Source: a virus (lineage: Duplodnaviria > Heunggongvirae > Uroviricota > Caudoviricetes). Taken from it: a DNA stretch of 56,969 bases. Below, piece by piece: positions 40 to 46,674 of the stretch. Location of the stretch: the IMG/VR virus record IMGVR_UViG_2740892231_000011, positions 1 to 56,969 of that record. One strand, given 5' to 3'. Positions within the stretch are counted from its first letter, which is position 1; the number at the start of each line of letters is the position of its first letter. The position numbers and the translations under genes are program-made. The notes beneath the pieces were generated by a model. The model had not been told where the DNA came from and searched no databases. It saw nothing but the letters and a program-made list of their open reading frames with translations.

Positions 40-402
40 GGGGCTGATTCTGGATTCGACGGGATTTGCGAAACCCAAGGTGCATGCCGAGGGGCGGTTG
101 GCCTCGTAAAAAGCCGCAAAAAATAGTCGCAAACGACGAAAACTACGCTTTAGCAGCTTAATAACCTGCTTAGAGCCCTCTCTCCCTAGCCTCCGCTCTT
201 AGGACGGGGATCAAGAGAGGTCAAACCCAAAAGAGATCGCGTGGAAGCCCTGCCTGGGGTTGAAGCGTTAAAACTTAATCAGGCTAGTTTGTTAGTGGCG
301 TGTCCGTCCGCAGCTGGCAAGCGAATGTAAAGACTGACTAAGCATGTAGTACCGAGGATGTAGGAATTTCGGACGCGGGTTCAACTCCCGCCAGCTCCAC
401 CA
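40..402 (+). ncRNA. ssrA: tmRNA (transfer-messenger RNA, SsrA)
   Basis: 363 nt starting GGGGCTGATTCTGGATTCGAC and ending GGTTCAACTCCCGCCAGCTCCACCA; internal tag frame GCAAACGACGAAAACTACGCTTTAGCAGCTTAA (ANDENYALAA*) at about 129..161. Matches E. coli ssrA from memory. Confidence 0.95.
372..402. repeat. att core at ssrA 3' end (left copy of 31-bp direct repeat)
   Basis: GACGCGGGTTCAACTCCCGCCAGCTCCACCA recurs identically at 41255..41285; typical 3'-end tRNA/tmRNA attachment duplication. Confidence 0.75.
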
Positions 403-532
403 ATCATGATTGGACGGTGTAAGGACAACACCAACAAAAACAGGATGTTAGCAGTCTCTGCAGGACACCGACCAGACGGTGAGGGGACAAAAAAGGATAC
501 GCAAAGGAGCCGCGGCTCTTTAGTTACATGAA

Positions 533-556
533 AGCCCGCTAATGCGGGCTTTTTTT
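533..556 (+). terminator. rho-independent terminator-like hairpin downstream of ssrA
   Basis: AGCCCGC-TAAT-GCGGGCT stem-loop followed by TTTTTTT. Confidence 0.5.
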
Positions 557-570
557 ATGGGATAAGACAT

Positions 571-1491
571 ATGAACCAACTGCAAGAAATCATTCAGATA
601 CTAAGTACTGGTGATGAAGGCACAACAAATGCTCTCATAAAAACGAAGATCCTTCTTTTCTCTATCGGGAAAAAGGAGCTTGCTGCATGGGTAAATCATG
701 AGATAAACGGTTATCCTGATTCAGTTTCCCTTCCAGATTATAGAATTGTTGGCACAAGAATTCTTGCAGATCTGAACAACGGCGTTCGCCTATATAGAGC
801 TTTTCCGTTACCGATTGGCTATCTAAGTGAAGATGACTATGAAGATGCTACAACCAGTAATGTGAGGCTTTCAATCAGTCAAATCGAAGAACTAGTAACC
901 AATGCTGGTGATAGCCATGCTCTTCAGCAGCCAATTCCTTTAGATTACGCGTTAGTTAAGTACTGCAAAGGTATCGATAAAGGCTATGAGTTAACACGCT
1001 GTTATAAAGAGATCGCACTACATAACTTTACTTCCATCTTAACTCAGGTCAGGTCACGGCTACTTGATTTTATACTTGAACTTTCTGATCAAGTTTCTGA
1101 AATACCAGATGAGAAAAACATGACAGAAAAACTCAAAAATATCGACACGTCTTCATTATTCCATAACTCAATTTTTGGAGACAATACTGTCATAAACTTC
1201 GGAAATGAAAACTCATTTTCTGTGAATAACCACGTCGTCAAAAACAACACTGAGTCATTAAAAGAGTTTCTCTCAGCTCAGGGGTTCCCTAAATCTGATG
1301 TTAACGATTTAGAAATTGCTATTGGTGAAGATGGCCCGATAGCTAACAAACGTGGTGAATATGGTCAATCTGTTAGTAAATGGTTGGCAAATATTGCGAG
1401 TAAAGCAGCCCATGGTACTTTGGGCATAGGAATAGCTGCTGCAACTCAAGCAGCTACAGCGGCTCTGAAAAAATACTACGGTCTATCATAA
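571..1491 (+). CDS. hypothetical protein (306 aa); candidate defence/abortive-infection cargo with C-terminal small-residue hydrophobic segment
   Basis: Intact ORF in an AT-rich block just inside the prophage end; C-terminus HGTLGIGIAAATQAATAAL resembles a glycine-zipper-type membrane segment; no motif I can assign to a known family. Confidence 0.55.
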   Translation: MNQLQEIIQILSTGDEGTTNALIKTKILLFSIGKKELAAWVNHEINGYPDSVSLPDYRIVGTRILADLNNGVRLYRAFPLPIGYLSEDDYEDATTSNVRLSISQIEELVTNAGDSHALQQPIPLDYALVKYCKGIDKGYELTRCYKEIALHNFTSILTQVRSRLLDFILELSDQVSEIPDEKNMTEKLKNIDTSSLFHNSIFGDNTVINFGNENSFSVNNHVVKNNTESLKEFLSAQGFPKSDVNDLEIAIGEDGPIANKRGEYGQSVSKWLANIASKAAHGTLGIGIAAATQAATAALKKYYGLS

Positions 1492-1540
1492 CCATCATGG
1501 GGTGTCGGGGGTCGGAGGTTCAAATCCTCTCGTGCGACCA
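1492..1540 (+). other. tRNA-Pro 3'-half remnant (non-functional, att-like)
   Basis: CCATCATGGGGTGTCGGGGGTCGGAGGTTCAAATCCTCTCGTGCGACCA matches the anticodon-stem to CCA portion of E. coli tRNA-Pro (proL-type, from memory) with one base missing in the acceptor arm; the 5' half is absent. Confidence 0.7.
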
Positions 1541-1555
1541 AAAATCCCTTAAGAA

Positions 1556-1580
1556 CCAGCCTATTATGGCTGGTTTTTTT
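1556..1580 (+). terminator. terminator-like hairpin
   Basis: CCAGCC-TATTAT-GGCTGG followed by a T-run. Confidence 0.45.
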
Positions 1581-2324
1581 ATGATTGTTTTTTATGCGGA
1601 GAAATACCGGGGAATAATTGGGGTAAAACACCTTTAGGCTATTCACTTAGCCTACCACCATCAAAATCTTTCCGAATGTATCCATCTCTTTTTTCTTATG
1701 CAGCTAAAACGAAGTCTTGATACTGTTTATTTACACAGATAAGAATAATACTGTCTACAAACGCAGTACAAAAGAAGTGTTATGCGTATTGAGATCTCCA
1801 TAACCAAAGACAAAATGACCAAATGCCAAATGGCGCTGTGGACGCGTTAAAGGAAGAGTTAACCCAACACATTGGCAAGCGTTATGACGATGTGGAGATG
1901 ATCGTAAAAGCCACCAGCAACGATAGTTTTTCAGTTAGACATACTGCAGATAAAGATTGAGCTAAAACTTTCGTTCAGGAAACTCTGAATGATACCTGAG
2001 AGTCTACTGAAGAGTTGTTTGTTCACTAGTTAGCACGTAGGAAATCATTCAATACTCGCACTATCGGAAGTTCACCAGCCAGTCGTAGCACGTCCTTGCA
2101 AACGACGTGCCTACAATTTCAATCACCTCTCACCATCAGTTCTATCAATAATAATTAAACAGCGCCTAGACAAAATAAATAACAACAAGTCAACAACCTC
2201 GACAGGATGCCGATGGGATGATGAAGAGATAAGAAAGAATAACCAGTAAAGCCCTAAAACGTCAGCGTTCAGACGCGTTTTTTACTTAACCGGTAACAAA
2301 TACGTTGTATCATAGCAGAATAAA

Positions 2325-4274
2325 ATGATTGTTCTAAATCAGATTAACTCCTCACTTTTGTACAATGTCGCTTACAGGTATACCATGAAATCCGAGACGC
2401 TAACTGTCCAACAACTTTTTCAAGACCGCCGACAATACTGTGTTCCATTCTATCAACGTGCCTATGTATGGACTCAGCAAGACCAATGGTCAGCTCTACT
2501 GGAGGATATCCTAGAGAAAGCACAATCCCGGCTCTCGGGTACAAAACCAACTCCCCATTTCCTTGGTGCGGTTGTACTGGAACCTCAATCAAAAAAAGGA
2601 TTATTAGGTGTAGATTCCATACATATTATTGATGGTCAGCAACGATTGACCACTCTTCAATATGTTCTGGCATCCATCCGATTAGCATTACGTGCTACGG
2701 ATCTTTCCAGCTTAGAGGCTCTCATTTCGCCTTGCCTGAAAAACTCAAACGAAGACACAATGCGAAATAAAGAAGTAGAACGCTTCAAACTGTGGCCAAC
2801 TTTTCGGGATCAAACTCATTTTATTCAAAGTTTTAATGTTGAAAATATTGACGATCTCCGGGACGTATTCTCTGATAGTTTCACGCAGCATGGTACGTTG
2901 CGTAAGCGTTTTAATCACCCGCCATCACTAGAAGCATTATGTTTTTTTACTAAAGCCTTTATAAAATGGATTAAAATAGAAAACCACTCACCACAAGAAA
3001 ATGCTGTAGCTCTAATTGAGGCTGTCTTAACAGATCTGAAACTGGTAAGCATATTTCTCGAAGCTGAAGATGATGCCCAAATAATTTTTGAAACATTAAA
3101 TGGGCGAGGGGCGGAACTTCATGCTACGGATCTTATTCGCAACTATATCTTTATGTGCGCAGAGCATGAAAATATAAATGCTATTGAATTATATGAAAAT
3201 GAGTGGAAGAGCTTTGAAGATAAATACTGGTCGGAAAAACAACGCCGTGGACGTATTAATAAACCACGCATGGAGTGGCTAGTACATGCGACATTGCAAT
3301 CAGAAAGGCAGCGTGAAATTGATCTGTCTCGCCTTTACAATGAGTATCGTGATTATGTAAGTAAGGACTTGTCTTCACAACGAGCAGATCTGCAAGTAAA
3401 GCGCCTCAAACAATATGCATTACAATATAAAGAATTGGTTGATGGTTTTGGCACAACCCCCATCTCACACTTTGGATATCGCATCGCAGACTATGATGTG
3501 ACGACACTTTATCCGCTTGCTTTGTTCATTTCGATAGCTAACATCGCTGATGATGAGAAAGCAGCCATGTATAATGATCTTGTCTCCTACGTAGTACGAA
3601 GAGCCGTATGTGGCCTGACGCCAAAGAATTACAACAATGTATTTATGAATGTATTGCGGCACTTGGCTAAAACGGAAATTTCCAGTGTTGAGTTACGTAA
3701 TATCCTCAATAACTTAAATGGCGAAGCCTCACGTTGGCCTGGTGACTCAGAATTTCTCAACGCTTGCATCAATGCTCCACTTTATCCTGGCAGGCTCGAC
3801 GCACCGAAAATGCGCTCAATGTTAACGGAACTTGAAAGAGAACTTTGTCGCCAAGTGAAGACCGAAAAGCCTGATGTTCCAAATCTTTCTAATCTCGATA
3901 TCGATCATCTTATGCCCCAAAGTTGGTATTCCTGTTGGCCTCTCGAAAATGGTCGTATGGTGACAAATTCAGATGCTACGGTATTGAACCAAATTGTTCT
4001 GTCTGGAACCGATCTTACCCCTGAACAGCTACTGGTAAGGAAACGGCAACAAGCGATAGCTACTTTGGGAAATCTAACTTTGCTTAACCTTAGCGTAAAC
4101 CGTTCTGTTCAGAATGCTGTATTTCTGAAAAAACGTGATGCTCTCATCGTCCACACCAATCTACGACTGAACATTCCACTTATAGTTAAGGATAAATGGG
4201 ATGAGGATGAAATCCTGGAGCGGGGTAAAAAGTTGGGGGAAATTGCATTGAAAGTATGGCCAAAACACGATTAA
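2325..4274 (+). CDS. GmrSD-like type IV (modification-dependent) restriction endonuclease, DUF262 + DUF1524 architecture
   Basis: N-terminal YQRAYVW and DGQQR motifs (DUF262/ParB-like NTPase); C-terminal DIDHLMPQSW His-Me finger motif (DUF1524). True start may be the internal Met at about 2385 (MKSETLTV). Confidence 0.8.
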   Translation: MIVLNQINSSLLYNVAYRYTMKSETLTVQQLFQDRRQYCVPFYQRAYVWTQQDQWSALLEDILEKAQSRLSGTKPTPHFLGAVVLEPQSKKGLLGVDSIHIIDGQQRLTTLQYVLASIRLALRATDLSSLEALISPCLKNSNEDTMRNKEVERFKLWPTFRDQTHFIQSFNVENIDDLRDVFSDSFTQHGTLRKRFNHPPSLEALCFFTKAFIKWIKIENHSPQENAVALIEAVLTDLKLVSIFLEAEDDAQIIFETLNGRGAELHATDLIRNYIFMCAEHENINAIELYENEWKSFEDKYWSEKQRRGRINKPRMEWLVHATLQSERQREIDLSRLYNEYRDYVSKDLSSQRADLQVKRLKQYALQYKELVDGFGTTPISHFGYRIADYDVTTLYPLALFISIANIADDEKAAMYNDLVSYVVRRAVCGLTPKNYNNVFMNVLRHLAKTEISSVELRNILNNLNGEASRWPGDSEFLNACINAPLYPGRLDAPKMRSMLTELERELCRQVKTEKPDVPNLSNLDIDHLMPQSWYSCWPLENGRMVTNSDATVLNQIVLSGTDLTPEQLLVRKRQQAIATLGNLTLLNLSVNRSVQNAVFLKKRDALIVHTNLRLNIPLIVKDKWDEDEILERGKKLGEIALKVWPKHD

Positions 4275-4295
4275 TGCAATTAATAAAATGATTAT

Positions 4296-4321
4296 AGCGG
4301 CCTTACCTTAGTAAGGCCGCT
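4296..4321. terminator. 11-bp stem hairpin after the GmrSD-like gene (putative terminator)
   Basis: AGCGGCCTTAC-CTTA-GTAAGGCCGCT perfect inverted repeat; no clean T-run on the + strand. Confidence 0.35.
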
Positions 4322-4524
4322 ACTCACTATTAAATACTTTAATTTGCATCAAGAACAGCAATGTCAGCCCTAGGTCTCGGACTTTGTACCGCTTATCTTG
4401 TTTTCAAAAATCAGCTCGCATCCTGCACAGTTCAGCGCATTACGTTGTAGATCTGTGTTCTGGTCATTTGTTGATACGCGTACATAGCCAATAAGCATGG
4501 TAGATCCCCCTGACAAAAGCAGGA

Positions 4525-34164: not shown

Positions 34165-34482
34165 ATGTTGTGCCACTATGCACTCATGTTAAAGCAGGTG
34201 TATGAAATGAAAGTCCAGATTTTAAACAATAACTGTGAAGTCGTTTGGTCATACGACATAGCCGCCCCTGTAGATCAGAGCGGCGATAGCTGGACCAATG
34301 GGAAACATCAGATTATGGCTGGAGTTGTGTTCTCTTTACGCCGTGCTTTGGAACAGGCTGAAGTATTTCCATCAGACCCTGAATGGAAATGGCCTTTTTC
34401 TATTTGTCCAAATTCGGAGAGCACATTTCAGAAAATTGGTCAGAAAGTCGCACTCGAAGAGCATCAGCCAACTGTTTCCTGA
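34165..34482 (+). CDS. hypothetical protein
   Basis: 105 aa ORF downstream of the repressor; overlaps a convergent ORF, so only one may be real. Confidence 0.3.
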   Translation: MLCHYALMLKQVYEMKVQILNNNCEVVWSYDIAAPVDQSGDSWTNGKHQIMAGVVFSLRRALEQAEVFPSDPEWKWPFSICPNSESTFQKIGQKVALEEHQPTVS

Positions 34483-34645
34483 TTATTTCAGGTAACTCGT
34501 CGGCATCGCAGAAACAACAACGCTCGATCATGTTGAAAGCCGATTCGTAGAACTGTTTCTGCTGAGTGTCGCTGAGACAGGAAAAGAACGACGTTACGAT
34601 GATTTTATTAATTGCATTATCAAGTTCTTTTTCATCAAAAGTCAT
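34400..34645 (-). CDS. hypothetical protein
   Basis: 81 aa AT-rich ORF, convergent with 34165..34482. Confidence 0.3.
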   Translation of the reverse strand: MTFDEKELDNAINKIIVTSFFSCLSDTQQKQFYESAFNMIERCCFCDADELPEIIRKQLADALRVRLSDQFSEMCSPNLDK

Positions 34646-35082
34646 TTGATTTTCCTTTTATGTATACGGGCTTAAAAGGATACCACCGAGCCTGAAGTGG
34701 TGAAAAGACAGGCACATAACAGCTAAGTATTTTCAACCAAAGAGAATCCTTGGCGTTGTGGTGAATGCGGCTCAGCGCACGCGGGTTAAGGTTGAGGCTG
34801 ACAGTCGACCTTCTGTGGATACCCACCCGTCTGGTGTGCAACCTTCGCCAGGCACCGGGAGGCACCCGGCACCACAACTTTATGCTGTGTGTAGTCCTGG
34901 CGGTACCAGTTTGTACCCTTGCTTCCGGCTGGTACCGTCCTTTTTACAAAACCGAGAAGAGCATCACCGGACGACGGGCTCATAACCCAATCCATCCGGG
35001 CGGCTGCCACCGCAGGTGTTCTTCTCTGTTTTGTGGAGAAACCAACTGGCCTTGCAGGGTCGATATGATGAGGAGCAGCAAA

Positions 35083-35445
35083 ATGGCTAGCGAACGCAGT
35101 ACTGATGTGCAGGCATTTATCGGGGAGCTGGACGGCGGCGTATTTGAAACCAAAATCGGCGCAGTTCTCAGTGAAGTCGCTTCCGGTGTGATGAACACGA
35201 AAACCAAAGGTAAGGTCTCACTCAACCTGGAAATCGAACCATTTGATGAGAACCGTGTGAAAATCAAACACAAACTCTCATATGTTCGCCCGACTAACCG
35301 CGGGAAAATTTCCGAAGAAGACACCACCGAAACGCCGATGTATGTCAATCGCGGTGGTCGCCTGACTATTCTGCAGGAAGACCAGGGACAATTACTGACT
35401 CTTGCCGGTGAACCTGACGGAAAACTCCGCGCAGCAGGTCATTAA
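35083..35445 (+). CDS. YfdP-like early protein (120 aa)
   Basis: AGGAG RBS 7 nt upstream of ATG at 35083; the longer track ORF from 34765 is an unlikely extension; gene order matches the CPS-53/SfV-like yfdPQRS block. Confidence 0.5.
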   Translation: MASERSTDVQAFIGELDGGVFETKIGAVLSEVASGVMNTKTKGKVSLNLEIEPFDENRVKIKHKLSYVRPTNRGKISEEDTTETPMYVNRGGRLTILQEDQGQLLTLAGEPDGKLRAAGH

Positions 35446-35510
35446 TATCGTTCTTAATTAACTGATTATTTATCTCATCACTGAATATCTTTATATAGTG
35501 AGGACTTATT

Positions 35511-36335
35511 ATGTCTCAGAACTTAGACGCAACCGCAATTAATCAAATCCATGCCCTTATTTCTGCTCAGGGTGTTAATGAAATTATCAGTAAGATTGGT
35601 GCCGATGTTGTGGCATTGCCTGAGAATTTCCGCATTCATGATCTGGAAAAATTTAATTTAAATCGCTTCCGTTTCCGTGGTGCGCTTTCCACTGCCAGCA
35701 TCGATGACTTTACCCATTATTCCAAAGATCTTGCAGATGAAGGCACCCGCTGCTTTATCGATGCTGATAATATGCGTGCTGTCAGTGTGCTTAATCTGGG
35801 TACTATTGATGAACCAGGTCACGCAGATAACACCGCCACTCTCAAACTGAAAAAGACAGCACCGTTCTCTGCACTGTTGTCTGTTAACGGCGAGCGTAAC
35901 TCCCAGAAGCCACTGGCAGAATGGATTGAAGACTGGGCCGACTACCTTGTGGGCTTTGATGCTAATGGTGACACCATTCAGGCAACCAAAGCGGCTGCGG
36001 CGATCCGTAAAATCACGATTGAAGCAAACCAGACCGCTGATTTTGAAGATAATGACTTCAGCGGCAAACGCTCCCTGATGGAGTCTGTCGAAGCGAAGAC
36101 CAAAGACATTATGCCAGTGGCATTTGAATTTAAATGCGTTCCGTTTGAAGGCCTGAAAGAACGTCCGTTTAAATTACGCCTCAGCATTATCACTGGCGAT
36201 CGTCCGGTACTGGTTCTGCGCATTATTCAGCTGGAAGCGGTGCAGGAGGAAATGGCTAACGAATTTCGTGATCTGCTTGTTGAGAAATTCAAAGACAGCA
36301 AAGTAGAAACCTTTATTGGTACTTTCACCGCCTGA
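35511..36335 (+). CDS. YfdQ-like (DUF2303) protein
   Basis: 274 aa, same length and position as yfdQ in SfV-like early-left operons (from memory). Confidence 0.55.
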
Positions 36336-36462
36336 TTTCATTACTGCAAATGCCCCTGCGGGGGCATTTATGGAAACATAATTTACTCAATAATCGCCGG
36401 ATGGTGAGGGCTTCCTTTTACCCGAATTCAGCGCGGTGCAGCGCATATACGTGGAGAACAAA

Positions 36463-36999
36463 ATGTCATTTATTAAAACTTTTTCCGGGAAGCATTTTTA
36501 TTATGACAAGATAAATAAAGACGACATCGTGATTAACGATATCGCGGTTTCCCTTTCAAATATCTGTCGCTTTGCAGGACATCTATCACACTTCTACAGT
36601 GTCGCCCAGCATGCAGTGCTTTGCAGCCAACTGGTGCCGCAGGAATTTGCTTTTGAAGCGTTAATGCATGATGCAACAGAAGCGTATTGCCAGGACATCC
36701 CCGCACCACTGAAACGACTTCTTCCTGACTATAAACGGATGGAAGAAAAAATAGACGCCGTAATCCGTGAGAAATACGGGTTACCTCCTGTTATGAGCAC
36801 GCCAGTGAAATATGCCGATCTCATTATGCTGGCAACCGAACGCCGCGATCTCGGACTTGATGATGGCTCTTTCTGGCCTGTATTGGAAGGTATCCCGGCA
36901 ACAGAGATGTTCAAAGTTATTCCACTGTCGCCAGGTCATGCCTACGGGATGTTTATGGAACGTTTTAACGAGTTATCGGAGTTACGCAAATGCGCATGA
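36463..36999 (+). CDS. HD-domain phosphohydrolase (YfdR-like)
   Basis: HD motifs (HLSHFYSVAQHAV ... LMHDATEAY); start at MSFIKTF with GGAGA RBS; 178 aa. Confidence 0.65.
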   Translation: MSFIKTFSGKHFYYDKINKDDIVINDIAVSLSNICRFAGHLSHFYSVAQHAVLCSQLVPQEFAFEALMHDATEAYCQDIPAPLKRLLPDYKRMEEKIDAVIREKYGLPPVMSTPVKYADLIMLATERRDLGLDDGSFWPVLEGIPATEMFKVIPLSPGHAYGMFMERFNELSELRKCA

Positions 37000-37352
37000 A
37001 TGTTTTCGAAATGGAAGGGTTTCTTCGTGGGAGATGTGTACCGCGAGATCTGAAAGTGAATGAAACAGATGCTGAATACCTGGTACGTAAATTCGATGCG
37101 CTTGAAGCTAAATGTGCAGCACTGGAAAACAAAGTAATACCAGTGTCAGCTGAACTGCCGCCAGCAAATGAAAGTGTTCTGTTATTTGATGCTAATGGAG
37201 AAGGCTGGCTGATTGGCTGGCGTTCTCTCTGGTACACATGGGGGCAAAAAGAAACCGGAGAATGGCAGTGGACATTTCAGGTCGGGGACCTTGAAAACGT
37301 CAATATCACTCACTGGGCAGTAATGCCGAAAGCACCGGAGACTAAGAAATGA
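36990..37352 (+). CDS. YfdS-like (DUF551) protein
   Basis: 120 aa, coupled to the preceding gene. Confidence 0.5.
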   Translation: MRMNVFEMEGFLRGRCVPRDLKVNETDAEYLVRKFDALEAKCAALENKVIPVSAELPPANESVLLFDANGEGWLIGWRSLWYTWGQKETGEWQWTFQVGDLENVNITHWAVMPKAPETKK

Positions 37353-37564
37353 GCGTGATAAAAACTCATACAGGAATTGTTATCACCCGAGACGGTGAAA
37401 AGCGGATGAAATTACATTCTACTGAAACGTCCTGGGTTGCCGGACGTTGTGAATCCTACGACAAAAAGACTGGTTACCGTTGGGGCGCGACAAACATGCG
37501 CCGCCGTCTGCTCCTGGACAGCATCAGGCCAATAAAACACGTAGCAACCAGAGAACAAAATTAA
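37349..37564 (+). CDS. hypothetical protein
   Basis: 71 aa ORF coupled within the early-left operon. Confidence 0.4.
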   Translation: MSVIKTHTGIVITRDGEKRMKLHSTETSWVAGRCESYDKKTGYRWGATNMRRRLLLDSIRPIKHVATREQN

Positions 37565-37611
37565 TTATCAGGACTGGAATTTGATATTACTGCCCGTGTG
37601 CAGCGGGCTAA

Positions 37612-37830
37612 GTGGAGAAACATATGCTGAACCTCGATTGTGTTCCTATCTCAACTTATTGCAAAGAAACTGGCGAAACTCCTGAAGCAATAAACAAACG
37701 TGTACAGCGCGGTGTTTGGCGTGAAGGTGTTCAGGTTTTAAAGGTTGAAGGCGTTAAGGAGAGGTGGATTGATCTTAGTGAGGTTGCAAAATGGGCCAGA
37801 CAAAACTGCTCAAACTACCGCGCGGCGTAA
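37612..37830 (+). CDS. excisionase-like protein
   Basis: Small basic protein directly upstream of and overlapping the integrase start. Confidence 0.45.
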   Translation: MEKHMLNLDCVPISTYCKETGETPEAINKRVQRGVWREGVQVLKVEGVKERWIDLSEVAKWARQNCSNYRAA

Positions 37831-38987
37831 CAATCAGGAAACACCGCCAGGGCGAAACGATCAATATAACTTTCACCTACAAAGGAGTTAAATGTCGTGA
37901 GCCTCTTTCCAATCTGGAAGTAACACCAAAGAACATTAAATACGCCGAGCGCACACTCGGCGAAATTCATAATAAGATCGAAAGGGGAACATTCATTTAT
38001 GCGGAATATTTTCCCCGTTCTGCTCGTTTGAAAATTTTTGGTAATGCTGCTGCAGGCAAAACGGTAAAAATGTACCTGGACGAATATCTTGAAATCTGCG
38101 AAACGAGAAAACTCTCACCCTCAACGATTGGTGGTTATAAAAAATGCCGTAGTGCGTTAGCCTCACTCCACATTTGCCCTGCAAGTGAATTAACACCAGC
38201 AATCCTGAAAGCGTGGATTCAAAGTCAGAAAACGACCTTAAAAACAATTCGCAACCAGTTATCTTTCCTGCGGTCAGCACTTGATGAAGCCGTAACCGAT
38301 GGGGTACTTCAAATTAACCCCGTATCGTTGGTAACTGCTTCGCGCTACCAAAGTGATAAGTCAGAAGCAGAAAGTTGCTACGTGGTTGATCCGCTATCAC
38401 CAACAGAAGTTGATGCATTACTAGCAGCAGCCGGAAACAAACAATGGGAGAATCTGTTCCGGTTCGCTATACATACAGGCCTGCGTAGTTCTGAATTATG
38501 TGCCCTTAGATGGCGTGATATCGACTTTGTTGGAAAAACTGCCCATGTCCAGAACGCAAGTGTTGTCGGTGTTATCAAAGGAACAAAGACAAAAGCCGGT
38601 ACTCGTAAAGTTGAACTGACAGAAGAGGCAATGTTGGCGCTGATAAACCAGAAGCCATTTACATTCATGAAGGATGCTACTGTCTTTGAAGATCCAAAGA
38701 CAAACAAACCGTGGGCCAGCGCCGATGCGATAAGGAAAAAAGCGTGGATACCAACCTTGCGTAAAGCTGGTATCCGGTACCGTAACCCATATCAGACCAG
38801 GCATACATTCGCCACCAGCCATATCAGCCGTGGTGCGAACCTGTTCTGGCTTGCAGCTCAAATGGGGCATAAAGGGCCGGAAATGCTTTTCAGGCATTAT
38901 GGTTCGTATCTCGTAGACTATGATGGCAAGACAGCTTGTAAGGACCAAGTATCAAAAAATCCGGAGAACATGAAAATTGAGAAGTAA
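37791..38987 (+). CDS. int: tyrosine integrase (lambda-type with arm-binding N-terminus)
   Basis: 398 aa; C-terminal catalytic region with R...HTFATSHI...LGH...Y-type motifs; positioned near the att repeat at 41255. Confidence 0.85.
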   Translation: MGQTKLLKLPRGVTIRKHRQGETINITFTYKGVKCREPLSNLEVTPKNIKYAERTLGEIHNKIERGTFIYAEYFPRSARLKIFGNAAAGKTVKMYLDEYLEICETRKLSPSTIGGYKKCRSALASLHICPASELTPAILKAWIQSQKTTLKTIRNQLSFLRSALDEAVTDGVLQINPVSLVTASRYQSDKSEAESCYVVDPLSPTEVDALLAAAGNKQWENLFRFAIHTGLRSSELCALRWRDIDFVGKTAHVQNASVVGVIKGTKTKAGTRKVELTEEAMLALINQKPFTFMKDATVFEDPKTNKPWASADAIRKKAWIPTLRKAGIRYRNPYQTRHTFATSHISRGANLFWLAAQMGHKGPEMLFRHYGSYLVDYDGKTACKDQVSKNPENMKIEK

Positions 38988-39177
38988 AACGCCCGATAGC
39001 ACTAGCCCCCCTTCGAAAAACAGTAAAGCTTACAAGAATGTTAGCAGGATGATGAGGATAGTGTACAATGGTTTTAGTGTGCATTAAATGCAAAGATTTG
39101 ACGTTTTTTGTCAAATTTGTGCTATAAAATCACTTTTAGTGGTTTTTAAGCTATGGGAAGTTAAAAGGGTATAAATT

Positions 39178-40443
39178 ATGTTGATTGAGTTTACAGTACA
39201 AAACTATAAATCTATTTCAGAGAAACAAACACTGAGTTTAGTTGCATCAAAACTTAACGATTTGCCTAATAATCTGTTCAGTATTGATGAACCTAAATCT
39301 CTTGAATTGCTTAAAAGTGCTGTGATTTATGGCCCTAATGCTGCCGGAAAATCAAACATTATTAACGCTATTACAACTATGGCTGAACTTATTGTCCGGT
39401 CTGCTACAGGTTATAAAAGTGGTGATAAACTTGATATCACGCCTTTTAGACTAGACTCAAAGAAGATTAATCAACCATCTGAATTTGAAATTAACTTTAT
39501 TTCCGAAGGCATCAGATACCAGTATGGTTTTTCTGCAACAGAAGATTTTATTCACGACGAATGGTTATTTGCATTCCCCAAAGGCAGACCACAAAAATGG
39601 TTTTTACGTCTATGGGATGAAGAAAAACAAACCCATGAATGGGAGTTGGGGCCATCGTTGACAGGAGAAAAACAAACATGGTTGAAATCAACTAGGCCTA
39701 ATGCGCTCTTTCTTTCTACAGCGGTACAATTAAACAGTGTACAACTAAAACCTGTATACGATTGGTTTTATTACAAAGTTAAATTTACTGAATTAACAGG
39801 TTGGGATAGTGATTACAGTGCAAAGCAATGCTTAAATGATAAGAAAGATGAGATTCTCAATTTTTTAAAAGCTGCCGATGTAGGTATTGATGACATTCAT
39901 GTAACAAAGGAAAAATTCAATCCCAATGCTCTTCCTGATGATATGCCTGCAGCCATCAAGGAACTAGTGATTAAGAATATGCAAGGCAAGGAAGAATATG
40001 TCATTAAAACACTTCATAATAATGAGGCTGGAGAGCCAATTCCATTCGATTTAAAAGATGAATCGCATGGAACTAGAAAAATCTTTAGTTTCGCGGAACC
40101 CTTATCACATTCACTCGAGACAGGAAACATCCTGTTTATTGATGAATTAAATGATAACTTACACCCCAAATTAGTTGAGTTTATTGTAGGTTTGTTTCAC
40201 GATAAAAATATCAATAAGAATGGTGCCCAGTTAATCTTTACAACTCATGAGACGTCTATTTTAAATCAAGATGTTTTCAGACGAGATCAGATTTGGTTTG
40301 TAGAAAAAGACAATTCAAAGCAAACAAATCTTTTCCCACTTACGGATTTTAGTCCAAGAAAAGGAAGGGAGAATTTAGAAGCTTCTTATCTTGACGGTAG
40401 ATATGGGGCTTTACCACTCATTGGGAAATGGGAGAGATATTAA
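39178..40443 (+). CDS. AAA/ABC-type ATPase, AbiLi / RloA-like
   Basis: Walker A GPNAAGKSN near the N-terminus; Walker B-like ILFIDELNDNLHP; AT-rich; start of the next gene overlaps its stop. Confidence 0.7.
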   Translation: MLIEFTVQNYKSISEKQTLSLVASKLNDLPNNLFSIDEPKSLELLKSAVIYGPNAAGKSNIINAITTMAELIVRSATGYKSGDKLDITPFRLDSKKINQPSEFEINFISEGIRYQYGFSATEDFIHDEWLFAFPKGRPQKWFLRLWDEEKQTHEWELGPSLTGEKQTWLKSTRPNALFLSTAVQLNSVQLKPVYDWFYYKVKFTELTGWDSDYSAKQCLNDKKDEILNFLKAADVGIDDIHVTKEKFNPNALPDDMPAAIKELVIKNMQGKEEYVIKTLHNNEAGEPIPFDLKDESHGTRKIFSFAEPLSHSLETGNILFIDELNDNLHPKLVEFIVGLFHDKNINKNGAQLIFTTHETSILNQDVFRRDQIWFVEKDNSKQTNLFPLTDFSPRKGRENLEASYLDGRYGALPLIGKWERY

Positions 40444-41129
40444 TGGGAAGCGAAGATCTGTTCAAAAAAAGAAAGGCTCGGCGTAATAATGAATTCAAAC
40501 GAGTTAGTAAAGCACGAGCTCAAATGAAGAAAATTCTCATCGTCTGTGAGGGAGAGAAGACTGAGCCCGCATATTTTACAGATTTTATAAAACATTGCCG
40601 TATAAGCACGGCAAGCATAGTTGAGATTTCTGGAGAGTGCGGCTCAAGCCCTATGAATGTGGTATCTTGGGCAAAAGAAAAATATAATACGGAAAAGAAA
40701 AGGAGCGACCCTTATGATAAGGTTTATTGTGTCTTTGATAGAGACGCTCACCCTAACTATGATGAAGCTCTTAGCAGGATTAATTCCTTAAATCCAAAAG
40801 GGATTTTTGTTGCTATAACTTCCATACCATGTTTCGAGTACTGGCTGATACTACATTTTGGATACACCCGAAAATCATTTTCACCTCAGAAAGGCAAAAG
40901 TGAAGGCGCACAAATGCTAGCTGAGTTAAAAAAATACATGCCAGATTATGAGAAAAAGGCATCAGGTGTATTTAATAAATTGCAAGATCGGCTCGATACG
41001 GCATTAATCAATGCTAAAAGAGTCGAAGATGCCGCCAAAAAAGACGGGTCGATAAATCCTTCAACTAAAGTTGGCGCTTTGATTACAGATCTAATTAACA
41101 TTCGTGATGACTTTGAAAATGAGAAGTAA
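40428..41129 (+). CDS. RloB-like protein (AbiLii-like partner)
   Basis: KILIVCEGEKTEPAYF motif characteristic of RloB-like proteins as I recall them; operonic with the ATPase. Confidence 0.6.
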   Translation: MGEILMGSEDLFKKRKARRNNEFKRVSKARAQMKKILIVCEGEKTEPAYFTDFIKHCRISTASIVEISGECGSSPMNVVSWAKEKYNTEKKRSDPYDKVYCVFDRDAHPNYDEALSRINSLNPKGIFVAITSIPCFEYWLILHFGYTRKSFSPQKGKSEGAQMLAELKKYMPDYEKKASGVFNKLQDRLDTALINAKRVEDAAKKDGSINPSTKVGALITDLINIRDDFENEK

Positions 41130-41254
41130 AAATAACATGTCATGATGTAGCGACGGCAGCATGTTTAAGTTCAAATGGCAAAGTGTACGCGAAGTATACG
41201 CGAATCAAAAACAATAGAAAAAACGTATATTTTACAAAAGATTATATAAATTTT

Positions 41255-41285
41255 GACGCGGGTTCAACTCCCGCCAGCTCCACCA
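41255..41285. repeat. att core (right copy): attR of prophage 1 / attL of the IntA-type element
   Basis: 31-bp exact copy of the ssrA 3' end GACGCGGGTTCAACTCCCGCCAGCTCCACCA. Confidence 0.8.
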
Positions 41286-41408
41286 CTTTTTAGTTGTTTG
41301 AAGTTCAATGAAGTCTACTAAGCCCACACAGCACAAGCTCTGCGGGCTTTTTTACGTCTATTGTCGTCCAGTGAGAATTGCTGAGAACTACGAGTTATGG
41401 CACCCTGA

Positions 41409-42680
41409 ATGGGACCCACTAAGAAGGGTCCAAAAACCGAGGGTCCCAAAATGGCAAAAATCGCTAAGAAGCTCACTGACACTGAAATCAAAAGCACCAA
41501 GCCAGCCGATAAAGAAATCAACTTGTTTGACGGTGATGGTCTGATTCTACGAATCGCTCCTTTGGCGAAAGGAGGCAAGAAAAATTGGTATTTCAGGTAT
41601 GCAGTACCAGTGAGCAAGAAAAGAACCAAAATGAGCCTTGGGACATATCCTCACCTTACCCTTGCAAGAGCCAGAGCCTTACGTGATGAATATCTCTCCT
41701 TTCTGGCAAATGGTGTTGATCCCCAAATCCATAACAACGATAAGGCGAAGGCATTAAAGAGTGCTACTGAGCACACTCTCCAAGCCGTAGCGCGGAAATG
41801 GTTAGATGAGAAGGTAAAGACATCAGGTATCTCACAAGACCATGCAGCAGACATCTGGCGCAGCTTAGAGAGAAATGTCTTTCCCGGTCTGGGTAATGTC
41901 CCTATCAATGAGATCCGACCTAAGCTCTTAAAACAACACCTTGATCCTATTGAGCAACGAGGCGTATTGGAAACTCTACGCCGTATCATTTCACGTCTGA
42001 ATGAAATCTTCCGGTGGGCAGCTACTGAAGAACTTATTGAGTTCAACCCGGCTGACAACCTTGGTCAAAGATTCAGTAAACCAAAAAAGCAAAATATGCC
42101 TGCCCTTCCCCCAAGCGAATTGCCAAGGTTTATGGAATCTTTGACGAATGCGTCAATCCGGTTGGAAACACGTATGCTAATTGAATGGCAATTGTTGACA
42201 TGGGTTCGTCCGGGTGAAGCCGTTCGCGCAAGGTGGTCTGATATTGATACAACCAACAGCATTTGGAACATTCCTGCTGATTTCATGAAAATGAAAAAGC
42301 TTCACAAAGTTCCTTTGAGTAAAGAAGCTTTGCGCATCCTTGAATTAATGAAATCAATAAGTGGGCATAGAGAATGGGTTTTCCCCAGCATAAAAGCGCC
42401 TCTTAATCATATGCATGAACAAACAGCCAACGCAGCTATCATCCGAATGGGGTTCGGAGGCGAGCTTGTAGCTCACGGTATGCGTTCTATTGCACGAACA
42501 GCGGCAGAGGAGTCTGGTAAATTCAGAGCTGAAGTTCTTGAGGCAGCGCTTGCCCACTCGAAAAAAGATGAAATTATCGCAGCATACAATCGTGCAGAAT
42601 ATCTGATAGAGCGACAGAGTTTGATGCAATGGTGGAGTGATTACGTTCAAGCTCAAAGATCAAATGCTCTGGTAGCCTAA
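41409..42680 (+). CDS. tyrosine integrase, IntA/P4 type (ssrA-specific family)
   Basis: N-terminus KLTDTEIKSTKP...LFDGDGLILRI resembles CP4-57 IntA; C-terminal catalytic domain; likely start at MAKIAKK near 41451; adjacent to the att repeat. Confidence 0.85.
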   Translation: MGPTKKGPKTEGPKMAKIAKKLTDTEIKSTKPADKEINLFDGDGLILRIAPLAKGGKKNWYFRYAVPVSKKRTKMSLGTYPHLTLARARALRDEYLSFLANGVDPQIHNNDKAKALKSATEHTLQAVARKWLDEKVKTSGISQDHAADIWRSLERNVFPGLGNVPINEIRPKLLKQHLDPIEQRGVLETLRRIISRLNEIFRWAATEELIEFNPADNLGQRFSKPKKQNMPALPPSELPRFMESLTNASIRLETRMLIEWQLLTWVRPGEAVRARWSDIDTTNSIWNIPADFMKMKKLHKVPLSKEALRILELMKSISGHREWVFPSIKAPLNHMHEQTANAAIIRMGFGGELVAHGMRSIARTAAEESGKFRAEVLEAALAHSKKDEIIAAYNRAEYLIERQSLMQWWSDYVQAQRSNALVA

Positions 42681-42718: not shown

Positions 42719-43135
42719 ATGGAAACCCTATTCAAAGTTTTTGAAAAATTTAGTTCCAGACCACTTTTTTTTATTTTTTTCGGACTCTCACTTTGTGAAT
42801 TTTTTCAGAAACAATCTGTTCTGATGAATCCATCAGCAGATAACATCGCGAAATTATTCGCAGCCATGATATTAGTTGTTTTTTTTACTTGGGGATTTGA
42901 ATGGCTAATCTTCAAGTTCAATGTAAACCTTGAACCTCATGATCAAGGCGATATTGGACCAACAATTGGAACGGCTACTTTAGCTGTATACTTAGTTTAT
43001 GCCTTTCACTTTCTCAGTGAAAATCCTGAAGCATTAAATTTAAAGTTATTAACTAACTCTGGCTTTATATACAGCACAACTCTATTATTATTCTCATTAG
43101 AATGCATGAAGCTTAGAAGACTTAAACAAAAATAA
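42719..43135 (+). CDS. hypothetical polytopic membrane protein
   Basis: 138 aa with about 4 hydrophobic helices; AT-rich. Confidence 0.5.
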   Translation: METLFKVFEKFSSRPLFFIFFGLSLCEFFQKQSVLMNPSADNIAKLFAAMILVVFFTWGFEWLIFKFNVNLEPHDQGDIGPTIGTATLAVYLVYAFHFLSENPEALNLKLLTNSGFIYSTTLLLFSLECMKLRRLKQK

Positions 43136-43355: not shown

Positions 43356-44972
43356 TTAAAAACACGGCAGAAATAATATTTTTTCTTCGCCATCAACTGT
43401 TGTTCCATGATTCAACACCACCATATAATCAACAACAGGAAGCGTTTTATCCCCTTCGAAAATAGAGAGATATTTTCTTTGATTTTTATGCATTACATAT
43501 ATATATTTCGAATGTTCAGCAAATGGCAATGCTTTACTCTGACTGGCGTTAAAAAGCTCCAGAACTTTAATGAGCCTGTGCGGACTTAATCTTACATGGT
43601 GAGGGTCGTTACCCTGAGTAGGAACCAAATCACATGCCGCAGATACACATAAATACCATTTGTTCGACTCTGTATCAAAGAAAATAGTGCCAGTAGAAAT
43701 ATGACCATCTTCAAAATTCTTTGAAGACAAATTCATATTTAAAGCATGATACATTTCGTGATAAGTATCATTATTTGATGGCAGATCCATTTTTGAAGAG
43801 CAATATTGGAGCAATGCAGCAACTCCGCTGTTAGCGTATTCATTTGAATAGCTATCAAAAACACTTTTGATAAATTCATCCAGCGTATTATTATTTTTAA
43901 GTCTTTGATAAAGCTCTTCTGATAAATTACCAAATACAAAGTCAATATTTCTACATCTAATATCAGGCGAGTCTGATTTTAATATCTCATTTAACCACGC
44001 AGCTTGACCGTAATGATCGTTAGCCAAATGATTTACAAAAGATAAAGCCTCAGCTTCGATTGCATTCTGAATTTCAGATTTTATTAACTGATAATAAGAT
44101 GGTTTCCATTCAATGAGAGAATCATTGAGAGTTTGCCAAATCCTATCTCCATCGTTTTCATGATCATCTTGAACCTTATGAAATAGGGAGACAAAGATAT
44201 TACCACATTGAATCCATTTTACTCCGCTTTCATCACCCCGAATGACATTGCCAGATGTGTTGCTAGAAATAATTGCATTTCTAGACACAGCATATTCTGC
44301 AATCATTTTTGCAATGAAGTTTTTATCCTTTTGATCCTCCAACACAGCATCATCATGTATTAATCTTTTAATTCTTCTACAAGGCTTACTGTCTTTAATA
44401 TAGGCTATTGTTTCATCTCTTGTGAGAGCTTTATTACCATTATCATTTAAGTTCGGTAATACAACGTCTTCCCAATAACTTTGGACATCTTCATTATCGT
44501 AGTCAATGATCAAGCTGTTGATATCCAGAGCACCTTTGAGAGTCGATGATATCTGCATCCAAACCGTTTCTAAATTCTCTCTAGTATATATTACAATCAT
44601 ATTTAAATGATCGGAGTCTTTCAAATCTTGTAATAGTTTAAGTGTTTTATCAGGTGCATTATTATCAAGATGATAATCTACAATAATAAGATCTGATTTC
44701 CTAATCCGATCCACATCGAAATTAACAGAACCATTGTCAACATCACAAATCATATTTTTAGATTGAAAAAAGCTCTCAAGAGTAGCGGCTCGTTTAGATG
44801 AGTCAATTTTGTTGTAGTCTAAATCAACTTCGTTATTCAACGCCCTGATTGATTCAGAATACGTCAGAAAATCGTCATCAATCATGACAACGGAACGAAT
44901 TGCATTTTCGCAGAAAGTTTTCTGGACAAGAGAATTATAATTTGCCACTGTCATATTAGAACTCCACTCCAT
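43356..44972 (-). CDS. receiver (REC)-like domain protein fused to an unrecognised C-terminal domain (candidate effector)
   Basis: N-terminal VVMIDDDF ... DLIIVDYHLD ... MIVIYT resembles CheY-like receiver motifs (acidic pocket, phospho-Asp, conserved Thr); about 380 aa beyond with no known motif; coupled to the upstream kinase ORF. Confidence 0.6.
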   Translation of the reverse strand: MEWSSNMTVANYNSLVQKTFCENAIRSVVMIDDDFLTYSESIRALNNEVDLDYNKIDSSKRAATLESFFQSKNMICDVDNGSVNFDVDRIRKSDLIIVDYHLDNNAPDKTLKLLQDLKDSDHLNMIVIYTRENLETVWMQISSTLKGALDINSLIIDYDNEDVQSYWEDVVLPNLNDNGNKALTRDETIAYIKDSKPCRRIKRLIHDDAVLEDQKDKNFIAKMIAEYAVSRNAIISSNTSGNVIRGDESGVKWIQCGNIFVSLFHKVQDDHENDGDRIWQTLNDSLIEWKPSYYQLIKSEIQNAIEAEALSFVNHLANDHYGQAAWLNEILKSDSPDIRCRNIDFVFGNLSEELYQRLKNNNTLDEFIKSVFDSYSNEYANSGVAALLQYCSSKMDLPSNNDTYHEMYHALNMNLSSKNFEDGHISTGTIFFDTESNKWYLCVSAACDLVPTQGNDPHHVRLSPHRLIKVLELFNASQSKALPFAEHSKYIYVMHKNQRKYLSIFEGDKTLPVVDYMVVLNHGTTVDGEEKILFLPCF

Positions 44973-46674
44973 TGAACTGGATCACAAAATTAGCGCCATC
45001 TTTTATTAAATAGTTATCGCCTTCATCAGGTTCTGAATACCATATTTTATGATGTGCAACAGCAAGGTTTTCTCGACATAGATACAGACCTACCCCATGT
45101 CCATTTGCTCTTTTGCTATAAAATAGTTCAAATAGTCGCGGGATATCATCGGTATCAATTGCCGGACCAGAATTTGCTATGATAACCAAAGAATTCACAA
45201 AACCAATCTTTATGAGCCTATTATTTGACAGACTGACCCAATACATTGCATTGTTGATAATATTAGTAAAAACAGGATAGATCCTTGATGGTATATCTGT
45301 TATTGCGATTTGCTTAAACTCTTCACTAAATTCAATAGTTATTCGTTGCCGTTCGAAACGCTCCCCAAAGAACTTCAGGACATAATCCATGATATTTTTT
45401 CCAGTTATTCTCTGCCTGGATTGATAACCTGATATTTTCAAAGGTGATAAGAAACGTATTTGTTGAGTAAGCGATCTGTGAGCATTTAACGCCAATGAAA
45501 AACCAGGGTGTTCTTTTACAGAAGTAGGAAGAGAGTTTAGTCCTCTGGTTACCATAGAATCCATTTCTTCAAGTTCATGAGATATTATCTCAACACTAAT
45601 ACCTAACTGTGCAAGCGCGTTTAAACTTTTAGCTTTTTCTTCAAAATATGAGCGTTCTTCTTCAGATAATGAGAATGCTGAATCTAAGTTTATACCTTCA
45701 AATAATCTATCGAGACCTTTTATTATTGATTGATATTTGAAAGTTAGGGTATCAACTGACTCAACATATAAACTATCGAGCAAATTAAACACATTTTCAA
45801 TTTGTGAATCATTATCTATTGAATCAACAACTGATATAGTTTTAGCATAATAATCACTTCGATCAACCTTTATTTCATCGGCCCATTTTTTTAAAAGAGA
45901 ATGTATCTTCTCCTCTATCGTGTTATTAAACTTAGTTAGTTTAGAATTAATAATACCTTGATTTTTTTCAAGGTGATTTTTCGCTGCCAATGAAGGCTCA
46001 AGTTTATTTAATTCAGAATCAAGTTTATTAATTGCTAACTTCATTTGTAGAATATACGCAGAGAACTCATTAAATTTATCTCTGTAGTCTCTATATTTCT
46101 CTTCATACATTCCAAGTTTTGGAGGTTTGATAGGCGTTTTAATTTCACTGCGCAACGCATCTAAGTTTGTAAGATCACTGTCTATAATTTTAAGATAGTT
46201 TAAATCTAACGAACCATCAGTTTTATCAAGCTTAGTTTTCAGCCTTTTAACAGCCTCCAAGGAAGCATCAAGAACTGGTGTCTGATTCTTCAAAGCTTCT
46301 GAAAAACTTTTTTGTGTTGATTTTCGAGCTTGTTGTTGAGCAGATTTTCTTAACTCTTTTTCACGCTTAACTTGTTCTAAAAGCTCTTTACGGTCATCAG
46401 AACGTGAACCAAAAAATCTATCAGCAAGTTCAGTTAACAAATTAGATATAATAGTTTTCAGTTCTCTTGCAGCCTGGTTTCTTATGAATCCCTCTCTCCC
46501 CGACTTATCTTTCAGCTCTTTATTACTGGATTGAGTAATTCCAATATAACCAAAAATCCTTCTATTAGACCAATAATATCGCCCTGCATTCCATGAACGT
46601 CTTTCTTCTATCTGGAAGAAATCATTATCTACTCGACCATAAGGTAATACTCTCAAGCTATCCCTAAAAATCAT
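44956..46674 (-). CDS. histidine kinase (5'-truncated by IS insertion)
   Basis: C-terminal H-box-like ISHELEEM, N-box FTNIINNAMYW and G-box GHGVGLYL; the frame stays open upstream to about 46800 where it meets the IS end, so the N-terminal sensor region is missing. Confidence 0.65.
   Translation of the reverse strand: MIFRDSLRVLPYGRVDNDFFQIEERRSWNAGRYYWSNRRIFGYIGITQSSNKELKDKSGREGFIRNQAARELKTIISNLLTELADRFFGSRSDDRKELLEQVKREKELRKSAQQQARKSTQKSFSEALKNQTPVLDASLEAVKRLKTKLDKTDGSLDLNYLKIIDSDLTNLDALRSEIKTPIKPPKLGMYEEKYRDYRDKFNEFSAYILQMKLAINKLDSELNKLEPSLAAKNHLEKNQGIINSKLTKFNNTIEEKIHSLLKKWADEIKVDRSDYYAKTISVVDSIDNDSQIENVFNLLDSLYVESVDTLTFKYQSIIKGLDRLFEGINLDSAFSLSEEERSYFEEKAKSLNALAQLGISVEIISHELEEMDSMVTRGLNSLPTSVKEHPGFSLALNAHRSLTQQIRFLSPLKISGYQSRQRITGKNIMDYVLKFFGERFERQRITIEFSEEFKQIAITDIPSRIYPVFTNIINNAMYWVSLSNNRLIKIGFVNSLVIIANSGPAIDTDDIPRLFELFYSKRANGHGVGLYLCRENLAVAHHKIWYSEPDEGDNYLIKDGANFVIQFNGVEF

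Follow-up and report, generated by a model that had tools for sequence, protein, structure and literature searches.

We analysed a stretch of DNA of 56,969 nucleotides (nt), positions 1 to 56,969 of the virus record IMGVR_UViG_2740892231_000011, which we refer to throughout as the window. It contains a prophage that carries, as its last cargo before the right-hand attachment site, two overlapping genes for an ATP-binding cassette (ABC) ATPase and a protein of the RloB family. This pair is very probably a defence module of the AbiL family. Among the explanations that we weighed, the best overall is that of an AbiL-family two-gene anti-phage module, which a temperate phage integrated at ssrA carries as accessory cargo, and we consider it likely. 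The central reading of the original prediction, which had been made from the DNA letters and described an ATPase plus RloB module resembling AbiL/RloAB, is thereby borne out by profile searches against PADLOC and Pfam. The pair is known in kind: it is of the sort that standard pipelines annotate, and it is no new kind of system. AbiL was described in 1999 and is detected by both PADLOC and DefenseFinder. A compact and intact AbiL operon on an Escherichia coli prophage offers a convenient system for studying its trigger, target and assembly in the best host for phage genetics.

Assignment of the gene pair to the AbiL family

The top PADLOC models for the two proteins are AbiLi for the ATPase (E = 4.4e-101, 336 bits; runner-up model 121 bits) and AbiLii for the RloB protein (E = 3.2e-29; runner-up 20 bits). 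In Pfam, the ATPase matches AAA_21 (8.3e-37, 128 bits against a cut-off of 27) and AAA_15 (5.8e-8, 33.2 bits against a cut-off of 32.1), and its partner matches RloB over profile positions 1-195 of 195 (1.1e-39, 137 bits, cut-off 31.5). Of the four families that had been proposed for this search, AAA_21, AAA_15 and RloB were therefore matched and DUF4435 was not. Because the profile E-values range from 1e-29 to 1e-101, chance open reading frames (ORFs) can be ruled out. An AbiLi-type ATPase and an AbiLii/RloB protein thus lie adjacent and co-oriented in the window, and near-identical loci in RefSeq are labelled 'AAA family ATPase' and 'RloB family protein'. NCBIfam holds no specific model for either protein. 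Both proteins also gave secondary PADLOC matches to the candidate system PDC-M12 (PDC-M12A, 2.8e-21; PDC-M12B, 1e-4), with scores far below those of AbiLi and AbiLii, which indicates that PDC-M12 is a sister candidate system of ATPase plus RloB-like protein; apart from AbiLii, the RloB protein matched nothing in PADLOC but PDC-M12B, and that weakly.

The prototype, AbiL of the Lactococcus lactis plasmid pND861, has the same design, a two-gene operon on a mobile element that encodes an AAA_21/Rad50-like ABC ATPase followed by an RloB/Toprim-like protein. The window pair differs in being Gram-negative and in sitting in a prophage slot between integrase and attachment site rather than on a plasmid, and the relationship between the two is by profile only. 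In the single-chain systems P2 Old, class 1 and class 2 OLD and Gabija GajA, the domains are fused in one polypeptide, whereas here they are split over two ORFs.

The original prediction had also likened the pair to PARIS, in which a hexamer of AriA binds AriB and, on sensing an anti-restriction protein such as Ocr, frees this Toprim nuclease to cleave tRNA-Lys. The resemblance is one of architecture: PARIS too combines an ABC ATPase of the AAA_15/21 group with a separately encoded small nuclease of the Toprim type and is often encoded by phages or satellites, and the PARIS and AbiL ATPases have been placed in the same tree (PMC11464382). The ATPase does match PADLOC 'AriA' models (2.5e-35 and 7.8e-9), but these matches coincide in coordinates and length with the generic AAA_21 (304 positions) and AAA_15 (373 positions) models and score 121 and 34 bits against 336 for AbiLi, and AriA structures are absent from the best 50 Foldseek matches of the ATPase model. 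The effector is decisive. It is RloB in the window and DUF4435/AriB in PARIS; neither PADLOC nor Pfam matches gene 2 to AriB or DUF4435, the same holds for its 46 homologues at E<=5, and according to a FEMS review AbiLii and AriB share no sequence similarity (PMC13064643). We therefore rejected membership in PARIS, since DUF4435 is absent and the ATPase is not AriA-specific, and we regard it as extremely improbable. As the best-understood model for how the AbiL pair may work, PARIS nevertheless remains useful.

Organisation of the two genes

Both ORFs were found on the + strand where they had been predicted, at 39178-40443 and, in their longest frames, 40428-41129, and the quoted Walker A peptide (GPNAAGKSN) and RloB-like peptide (ILIVCEGEKTEPAYF) are present in them. 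The predicted gene overlap is real as well, amounting to 16 nt with the longest ORF and to 1 nt if gene 2 begins at the ATG at 40443. The latter is almost certainly the true start, overlapping the stop codon of the ATPase gene as TAATG, because it agrees with the RefSeq annotation of near-identical loci, because Met1 and Gly2 of RloB are invariant in 46 homologues (214-249 amino acids (aa) long), and because a Shine-Dalgarno-like GGGAG lies 8 nt 5' of it. The ATPase gene precedes the RloB gene, adjacent and co-oriented, and this order is identical in eight homologous loci (L011-L018); the 1-nt overlap recurs in four of them (L011-L014), and in the other four (L015-L018) the genes are adjacent and 1-11 nt apart.

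The pair is AT-rich, as had been noted: its GC content is 0.363, against 0.451 for the integrase gene and 0.519 for the prophage backbone, and it is 0.359 over 38988-41254. A 12-nt sequence, TGAGAAGTAAAA, made up of last codons and stop, ends both the integrase and the RloB gene (38976-38989 and 41118-41131, 2,142 nt apart). It could be a footprint of recombination. We considered it as the footprint of an insertion and set this aside, since the repeat is not kept in the diverged Enterobacter or H4N4 loci and one third of shuffled sequences yield some 12-mer repeat, so that chance is the probable explanation.

The ATPase resembles a Rad50-type head

Conservation in the ATPase was scored across 30 homologues with identities down to 55%. 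All four nucleotide-binding motifs hold invariant residues (Table 1), and the signature-like motif stands directly ahead of Walker B, which is the expected order in ABC ATPases. By these motifs, the predicted site of ATP binding and hydrolysis is intact and conserved.

The AlphaFold (AF2) model of the protein (mean predicted local distance difference test score, pLDDT, 84.8) is that of a Rad50/SMC-type ABC head. Its best Foldseek match in the PDB is Rad50 of P. furiosus (E = 1.6e-11), and the next are retron-IA and Septu PtuA, cohesin/SMC heads and the Thermus (Ts) OLD protein (3.3e-8). Searches by sequence were less informative: against PDB chains they returned only FtsE (E = 0.006), and PADLOC Old matched at 7.7e-8 only, over the P-loop region. 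An insertion of about 135 residues (about aa 160-295) separates the N-lobe of the model from the signature, at the place of the coiled coil in Rad50, and is a candidate surface for binding the partner or a trigger.

Since Rad50 heads are the best structural matches, one might suppose that the pair serves phage DNA metabolism, as a Rad50/SbcC-like ATPase with a nuclease for recombination or repair, or else that it is an inert remnant. We find either very unlikely. The pair is missing from almost all related phages (SfV, SfII, SfI, SfIV, vB_EcoM-689R6, phiNP and LLS), it lies outside the replication and recombination modules, in a moron slot at the attachment site and with foreign GC content, and it has no Mre11/SbcD partner and no long coiled coil. 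Decay is argued against by two intact ORFs, by invariant catalytic residues and by the 99.4-99.6% identity of the region across 15 genomes.

The RloB protein has a predicted Toprim-like core

The AF2 model of the RloB protein, built from 46 sequences (pLDDT 85.4; predicted template modelling score, pTM, 0.80), shows four parallel strands (aa 31-36, 60-66, 93-99 and 122-128) with helices between them and a helical C-terminal region. Residue conservation was scored across the 46 homologues. In the model, E36 closes strand 1 at its C-terminal end, D99 closes strand 3, and E132 follows strand 4. The canonical Toprim domain, as described by Aravind, Leipe and Koonin (1998, as cited in PMC11464382), has a Glu after strand 1 and a DxD after strand 3. 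The predicted structure is likewise a compact alpha/beta fold with a Glu and a DxD at these places, and we propose the core of RloB as a candidate Toprim-like, metal-dependent nuclease domain, in which E132 would be a candidate further metal ligand.

Likeness to solved Toprim nucleases, in fold and in profile, is suggestive only. The Toprim domain of P2 Old opens with an almost identical VLLVEGKTE, and hhalign sets the CEGEKTE of RloB on this EG-KTE motif. When the RloB profile was aligned with 92 P2-Old-type Toprim regions the motifs fell in register, at a probability of only 10.6%, and a more diverse RloB profile (145 cluster representatives) raised this to 18.6%; the statistical similarity between RloB and the OLD Toprim is thus weak, below 20%. 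Foldseek returned nothing for the RloB model at E<=1e-3. A sequence search against PDB chains detected no solved structure, its only match being a spurious one to apolipophorin, and hmmscan of the 46 homologues against Pfam at E<=5 gave no Toprim_OLD or DUF4435 and a single DUF4276 (0.11). The literature does place RloB/AbiLii in the Toprim/OLD group (PMC10440598, PMC13064643, PMC11464382). As further Toprim references we tried the OLD-like cargo ATPases of phage phiNP and E. coli 2014C-3655, and discarded them on finding that Pfam recognises no Toprim in them.

Table 1. Coordinates in the window of the AbiL pair, its conserved motifs and the surrounding integration features.
Feature	Position	Strand	Details
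AbiLi-type ABC ATPase gene (gene 1)	39178..40443	+	421 aa
Walker A / P-loop GPNAAGKSN, aa 52-60	39331..39357	+	G52, N54, A55, G57, K58 invariant
ABC signature-like ESHGTRK, aa 295-301	40060..40080	+	E295, S296, G298, T299 invariant (ESxGT)
Walker B and D-loop ILFIDELNDNLHP, aa 318-330	40129..40167	+	D322, E323, L328, H329, P330 invariant
H-loop FTTHET, aa 354-359	40237..40254	+	F354, T356, H357, T359 invariant
TAATG stop/start overlap coupling both genes	40441..40445	+	read from sequence; 1-nt overlap in RefSeq for L001 and L002
RloB/AbiLii-type gene (gene 2)	40443..41129	+	228 aa; longest ORF from 40428, 233 aa
Toprim-like motif 1, strand 1 then CEGEKTE, aa 31-45 (ILIVCEGEKTEPAYF)	40533..40577	+	C35, E36, G37, K39, T40, E41 invariant
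Toprim-like motif 2, strand 3 then DRD (DxD) and His, aa 94-103	40722..40751	+	D99, D101, H103 invariant
Conserved SIPCFEYWLILHF after strand 4, aa 127-139	40821..40859	+	S127, P129, F131, E132, W134, L137, H138 invariant
attL core, 3' end of tmRNA gene (40-402)	372..402	+	ARAGORN tmRNA call
Tyrosine integrase gene, ssrA-specific type	37791..38987	+	398 aa; Pfam Arm-DNA-bind_2 and Phage_integrase
Variable cargo segment: integrase C-terminal tail after YDG, intergenic region, AbiL operon to att core	38926..41254	+	homology breaks
Weak sigma-70-like site TTAGCA-17-TACAAT upstream of ATPase gene	39041..39069	+	9/12 consensus match only
attR core, duplicated ssrA 3' end	41255..41285	+	exact 31-bp repeat of 372-402

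The prophage is integrated at ssrA and is SfV-like in part

The pair had been placed between the integrase gene and an att repeat, and an exact copy of the ssrA 3' end confirms this position. The 31-bp repeat found no match in 100 shuffles. With ssrA cores at 372-402 and 41255-41285, the prophage spans about 403-41254. An Rfam scan of 37500-42000 found only an ssrA-derived fragment and, downstream of attR, a sub-threshold IsrM-like match (41276-41353; 53 bits against a gathering score of 376). The only terminator-like hairpin on the + strand downstream of the AbiL operon, at 41335-41349, is probably the displaced native ssrA terminator.

The description of the prophage as SfV-like applies to one of its modules. 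A morphogenesis region of about 17 kb (Mu-like/SfV-type tail, HK97-type head) is 96.9-97.5% identical to those of SfII, SfI, SfIV and SfV. The integration module is not of the SfV/CPS-53 type: the integrase targets ssrA, its closest relatives are those of Citrobacter phage phiNP (91%), Klebsiella phage Kp4866-6 (87%) and Escherichia phage LLS (86%), and the LLS record annotates a tmRNA-derived attP. No SfV-group record was among the matches listed in a tblastn search with the integrase. The best overall match to the prophage is vB_EcoM-689R6. The record of the latter (L020) is a prophage with host flanks, integrated at icd, and has a comparable layout (34337-37278) of int, a DUF262 (GmrSD_N-like) protein and a hypothetical protein followed by attR, with an McrA-like restriction enzyme at the opposite end (684-1517).

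It had further been suggested that the slot holding the pair usually carries serotype-conversion (gtr) genes, and here the comparison with SfV led us to a different view. The order in SfV is xis, int, a 262-bp gap, gtrA, gtrB, gtrV and tail fibres, with the tRNA-Thr core occupying the portion of the gap next to int. The gtr cassette and int are thus on opposite sides of attP, and integration brings the cassette to the far end of the prophage; the AbiL pair, on the int side, occupies a different sub-slot. We found no gtr genes in the prophage and none in the int-att slot of the sampled relatives with this integrase, and the SfV-type set of integrase, tRNA-Thr attP and gtrA-gtrB-gtr(type) is absent from the prophage. 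The AbiL pair and the gtr cassettes of SfV, SfII and SfX have in common that they are accessory cargo beside attP and accompany the same morphogenesis module; they differ in function, in the side of attP relative to int, in the integrase and in the attachment site.

The slot between integrase and ssrA att site is hypervariable

Comparison with sister prophages that carry other cargo defines the exchanged segment. Homology breaks off at 38902-38938, inside the integrase gene, and is found again from 41234-41257, at the att core. Beyond a conserved YDG, the C-terminal tail of the integrase is particular to each cargo variant (window 38902-38987), which places the recombination boundary inside the int coding sequence; integrase length varies with the cassette, from 388 to 398 aa. 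These observations suggest that cassettes are exchanged by homologous recombination, through the conserved body of int and the att core.

Of 5,426 complete E. coli genomes, 412 contain the integrase region (396 of them at >=80% coverage), and 15 E. coli genomes have the AbiL pair at 99.4-99.6% identity, that is, in about 4% of the prophages with this integrase. In two AbiL-carrying genomes, the stretch from xis through the integrase (37600-39000) is 96.7% and 97.3% identical to the window, as against 99.4-99.6% for the AbiL region (39000-41300) in the 15 genomes. The higher identity of the AbiL region suggests either that the cassette has spread recently among related prophages or that it is under stronger constraint.

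Other prophages fill the slot differently. In E. coli 2014C-3655 (L005, 5917-8629) it holds an OLD/PtuA-like ABC ATPase followed by a Dam-type methylase, the methylase matching PD-Lambda-5_B at 5.8e-124, and in phage phiNP (L003, 5171-6958) an OLD/PtuA-like ABC ATPase alone. The ABC ATPases in these two slots are 577-595 aa long and give PtuA/GajA/AriA-like matches, and Pfam finds no Toprim or other effector domain in their C-terminal halves. The slot of E. coli S88 (L007, 5856-7726) has three reverse-strand genes, including one for a STAS-like DUF4325 protein, and a second protein there weakly resembles HATPase_c_2, at 22.9 bits where the Pfam cut-off is 27.4. E15 (L008, 5878-7066) has two reverse-strand genes, and single proteins are encoded in Ecol_AZ146 (259 aa; L006, 5906-6685) and in phage LLS (271 aa; L004, 5218-6033). 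No PADLOC model was matched by the S88, E15, Ecol_AZ146 and LLS cassettes, which are candidates for uncharacterised defence or lysogenic-conversion genes.

One could go further and regard the int-att(ssrA) interval as an unrecognised defence hotspot with cassette swapping, some of whose unmatched cassettes may be new anti-phage systems, with the E. coli AbiL as a model that would show AbiL/RloB proteins to be trigger-released tRNases like AriB and P2 Old. We consider this combined proposal possible but would not bet on it. In practice, the comparison helps towards correct annotation of such prophages and flags the slot as a place to look for uncharacterised cassettes.

Distribution of the pair

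Among 1.84 billion representatives, the RloB profile found 10,759 clusters (50% identity) at E<=1e-3, and the ATPase has thousands of relatives. Where partners lie on the same contig, the ATPase is always the better kept of the two, with ATPase/RloB identities of 86/77, 84/75, 64/51, 60/50 and 56/48%. The pair is adjacent in Enterobacter, in an Enterobacteriaceae isolate, in Klebsiella and in Idiomarina. In the first two it occupies the same int-att slot and is collinear with the window from xis through RloB at about 75% nt identity, so the linkage between int and AbiL is old. In Klebsiella P2-like prophages the pair (61% identity) lies in the old/tin hotspot, which is bounded by gene A/DinI and the portal gene, and in Idiomarina it lies in an island flanked by an integrase and IS66, beside a Gabija-like pair of OLD-Toprim and UvrD proteins.

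Deposited phage genomes and plasmids hold few relatives. A DNA search of deposited phage genomes returned no match to the pair, and only four distinct records among 50,697 such genomes contain an RloB homologue. A plasmid search aimed at close relatives or the lactococcal prototype turned up neither. What it found were distant relatives, at <=43% identity, for the most part on small plasmids of enterobacteria and in some cases annotated abiLI.

Two further explanations were weighed. The pair might be a toxin-antitoxin addiction module that stabilises the prophage, with RloB as toxin, the ATPase as antitoxin and little or no phage exclusion. AAA proteins do neutralise Toprim_OLD/RloB-type toxins in NetFlax toxicity-neutralisation assays (PMC10440598), the two genes are tightly coupled in one operon, and from E. 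coli to Enterobacter the pair has diverged in step with the integrase, to about 75% nt identity, which fits a long linkage to the element. However, prophage maintenance does not depend on the pair, which is present in only about 4% of the prophages with this integrase; sister prophages fill the slot with other defence-type genes, and the prototype AbiL confers phage resistance (PMC13064643). Addiction and abortive defence are moreover not mutually exclusive, and PARIS shows both. We judge addiction without defence to be unlikely.

The pair might instead be an accessory of a type I restriction-modification locus, as RloA/RloB are in the hsd loci of Campylobacter jejuni. The Pfam family RloB takes its name from these restriction-linked Campylobacter ORFs (PMC10440598), the window protein matches it over its full length and has an ATPase partner as they do, and in one Enterobacter locus (L013) genes for an AAA_21 ATPase and a Methylase_S protein lie a short distance downstream, a few genes away. 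The window pair differs in being a stand-alone prophage operon: no hsd genes adjoin it, and it stands alone inside a prophage in the window, in the 15 E. coli genomes and in the H4N4, Enterobacter and Klebsiella loci. A role of this kind seems to us most improbable.

Possible mechanism

For the AbiL-family defence module that we favour, a mechanism can be proposed by analogy with PARIS (AriA/AriB) and P2 Old. The ATPase and RloB would form a complex in which the ATPase senses infection and keeps the nuclease in check. RloB would be freed or activated by a trigger from the phage, in combination with the binding or hydrolysis of ATP, and would then cut an essential nucleic acid, most likely tRNA or another RNA and alternatively DNA. 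Cleavage would halt translation or replication and abort the infection, so that both the population of lysogens and their resident prophage would be shielded from competing phages. The scheme assumes that the pair is expressed in the lysogen. By analogy, we lean moderately towards the logic of a sensor ATPase with a restrained nuclease; as to the target, we put RNA or tRNA ahead of DNA only tentatively.

In the window, the scheme draws on the conserved acidic set of RloB (Glu...DxD...Glu), on the retention of all ATPase motifs, on the tight operon and on the hypervariable cargo slot. From the literature, it draws on the L. lactis AbiL, in which both genes are needed and phage infection is aborted (Deng et al. 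1999, as summarised in PMC13064643); this two-gene system acts after phage transcription (PMC13064643). Toprim_OLD toxins are neutralised by AAA partners in toxin-antitoxin assays (PMC10440598), and AriB and P2 Old are tRNases (PMC11464382, PMC12409363, bioRxiv 10.64898/2026.07.10.737580), P2 Old being described as an abortive tRNase in the 2026 preprint (10.64898/2026.07.10.737580).

Several points speak against our interpretation. Models of AbiLii and AriB superimpose poorly according to the 2026 FEMS review, which leaves open whether AbiL/RloAB work like PARIS (PMC13064643), and our literature search found no experimental study of the enterobacterial AbiL clade. A scan of the pair for promoters and terminators returned no convincing example of either. 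Promoter-like sites are in fact rarer than in shuffled sequences (4 against 8.4), and the weak sigma-70-like site ahead of the ATPase gene is not evidence of a promoter because the shuffles hold more such sites.

Other cargo and the element downstream

The sub-slot equivalent to that of gtr in SfV, from attL to the tail-fibre genes (window 403-4500; GC content 0.407), holds two further genes of the defence type. One (571-1491, + strand) encodes a 306-aa AbiTii-domain protein (Pfam 3e-33, PADLOC 4e-33), and the other (2325-4274, + strand) a 649-aa GmrSD type IV restriction enzyme (PADLOC mREase_IV, 1410 bits). The temperate phage thus appears to arm both ends of its genome, with AbiL at attR and GmrSD and the AbiTii-domain protein at attL.

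A second integrative element follows attR in tandem (41286 to about 52000). The window shows no third ssrA core that would mark its end. It encodes a P4-type integrase (41409-42680), a membrane-like protein of 138 aa (42719-43135), a DUF927 primase-like protein (47870-50008) and an SSB (51111-51560). On the - strand, a gene for a Response_reg_2 protein (43356-44972) overlaps one for an HEF_HK/HATPase_c protein (44956-46674); in PADLOC, these gave nothing beyond a marginal match to C3a59 (0.0024). This downstream element looks like a satellite or island with a two-component-like conflict module.

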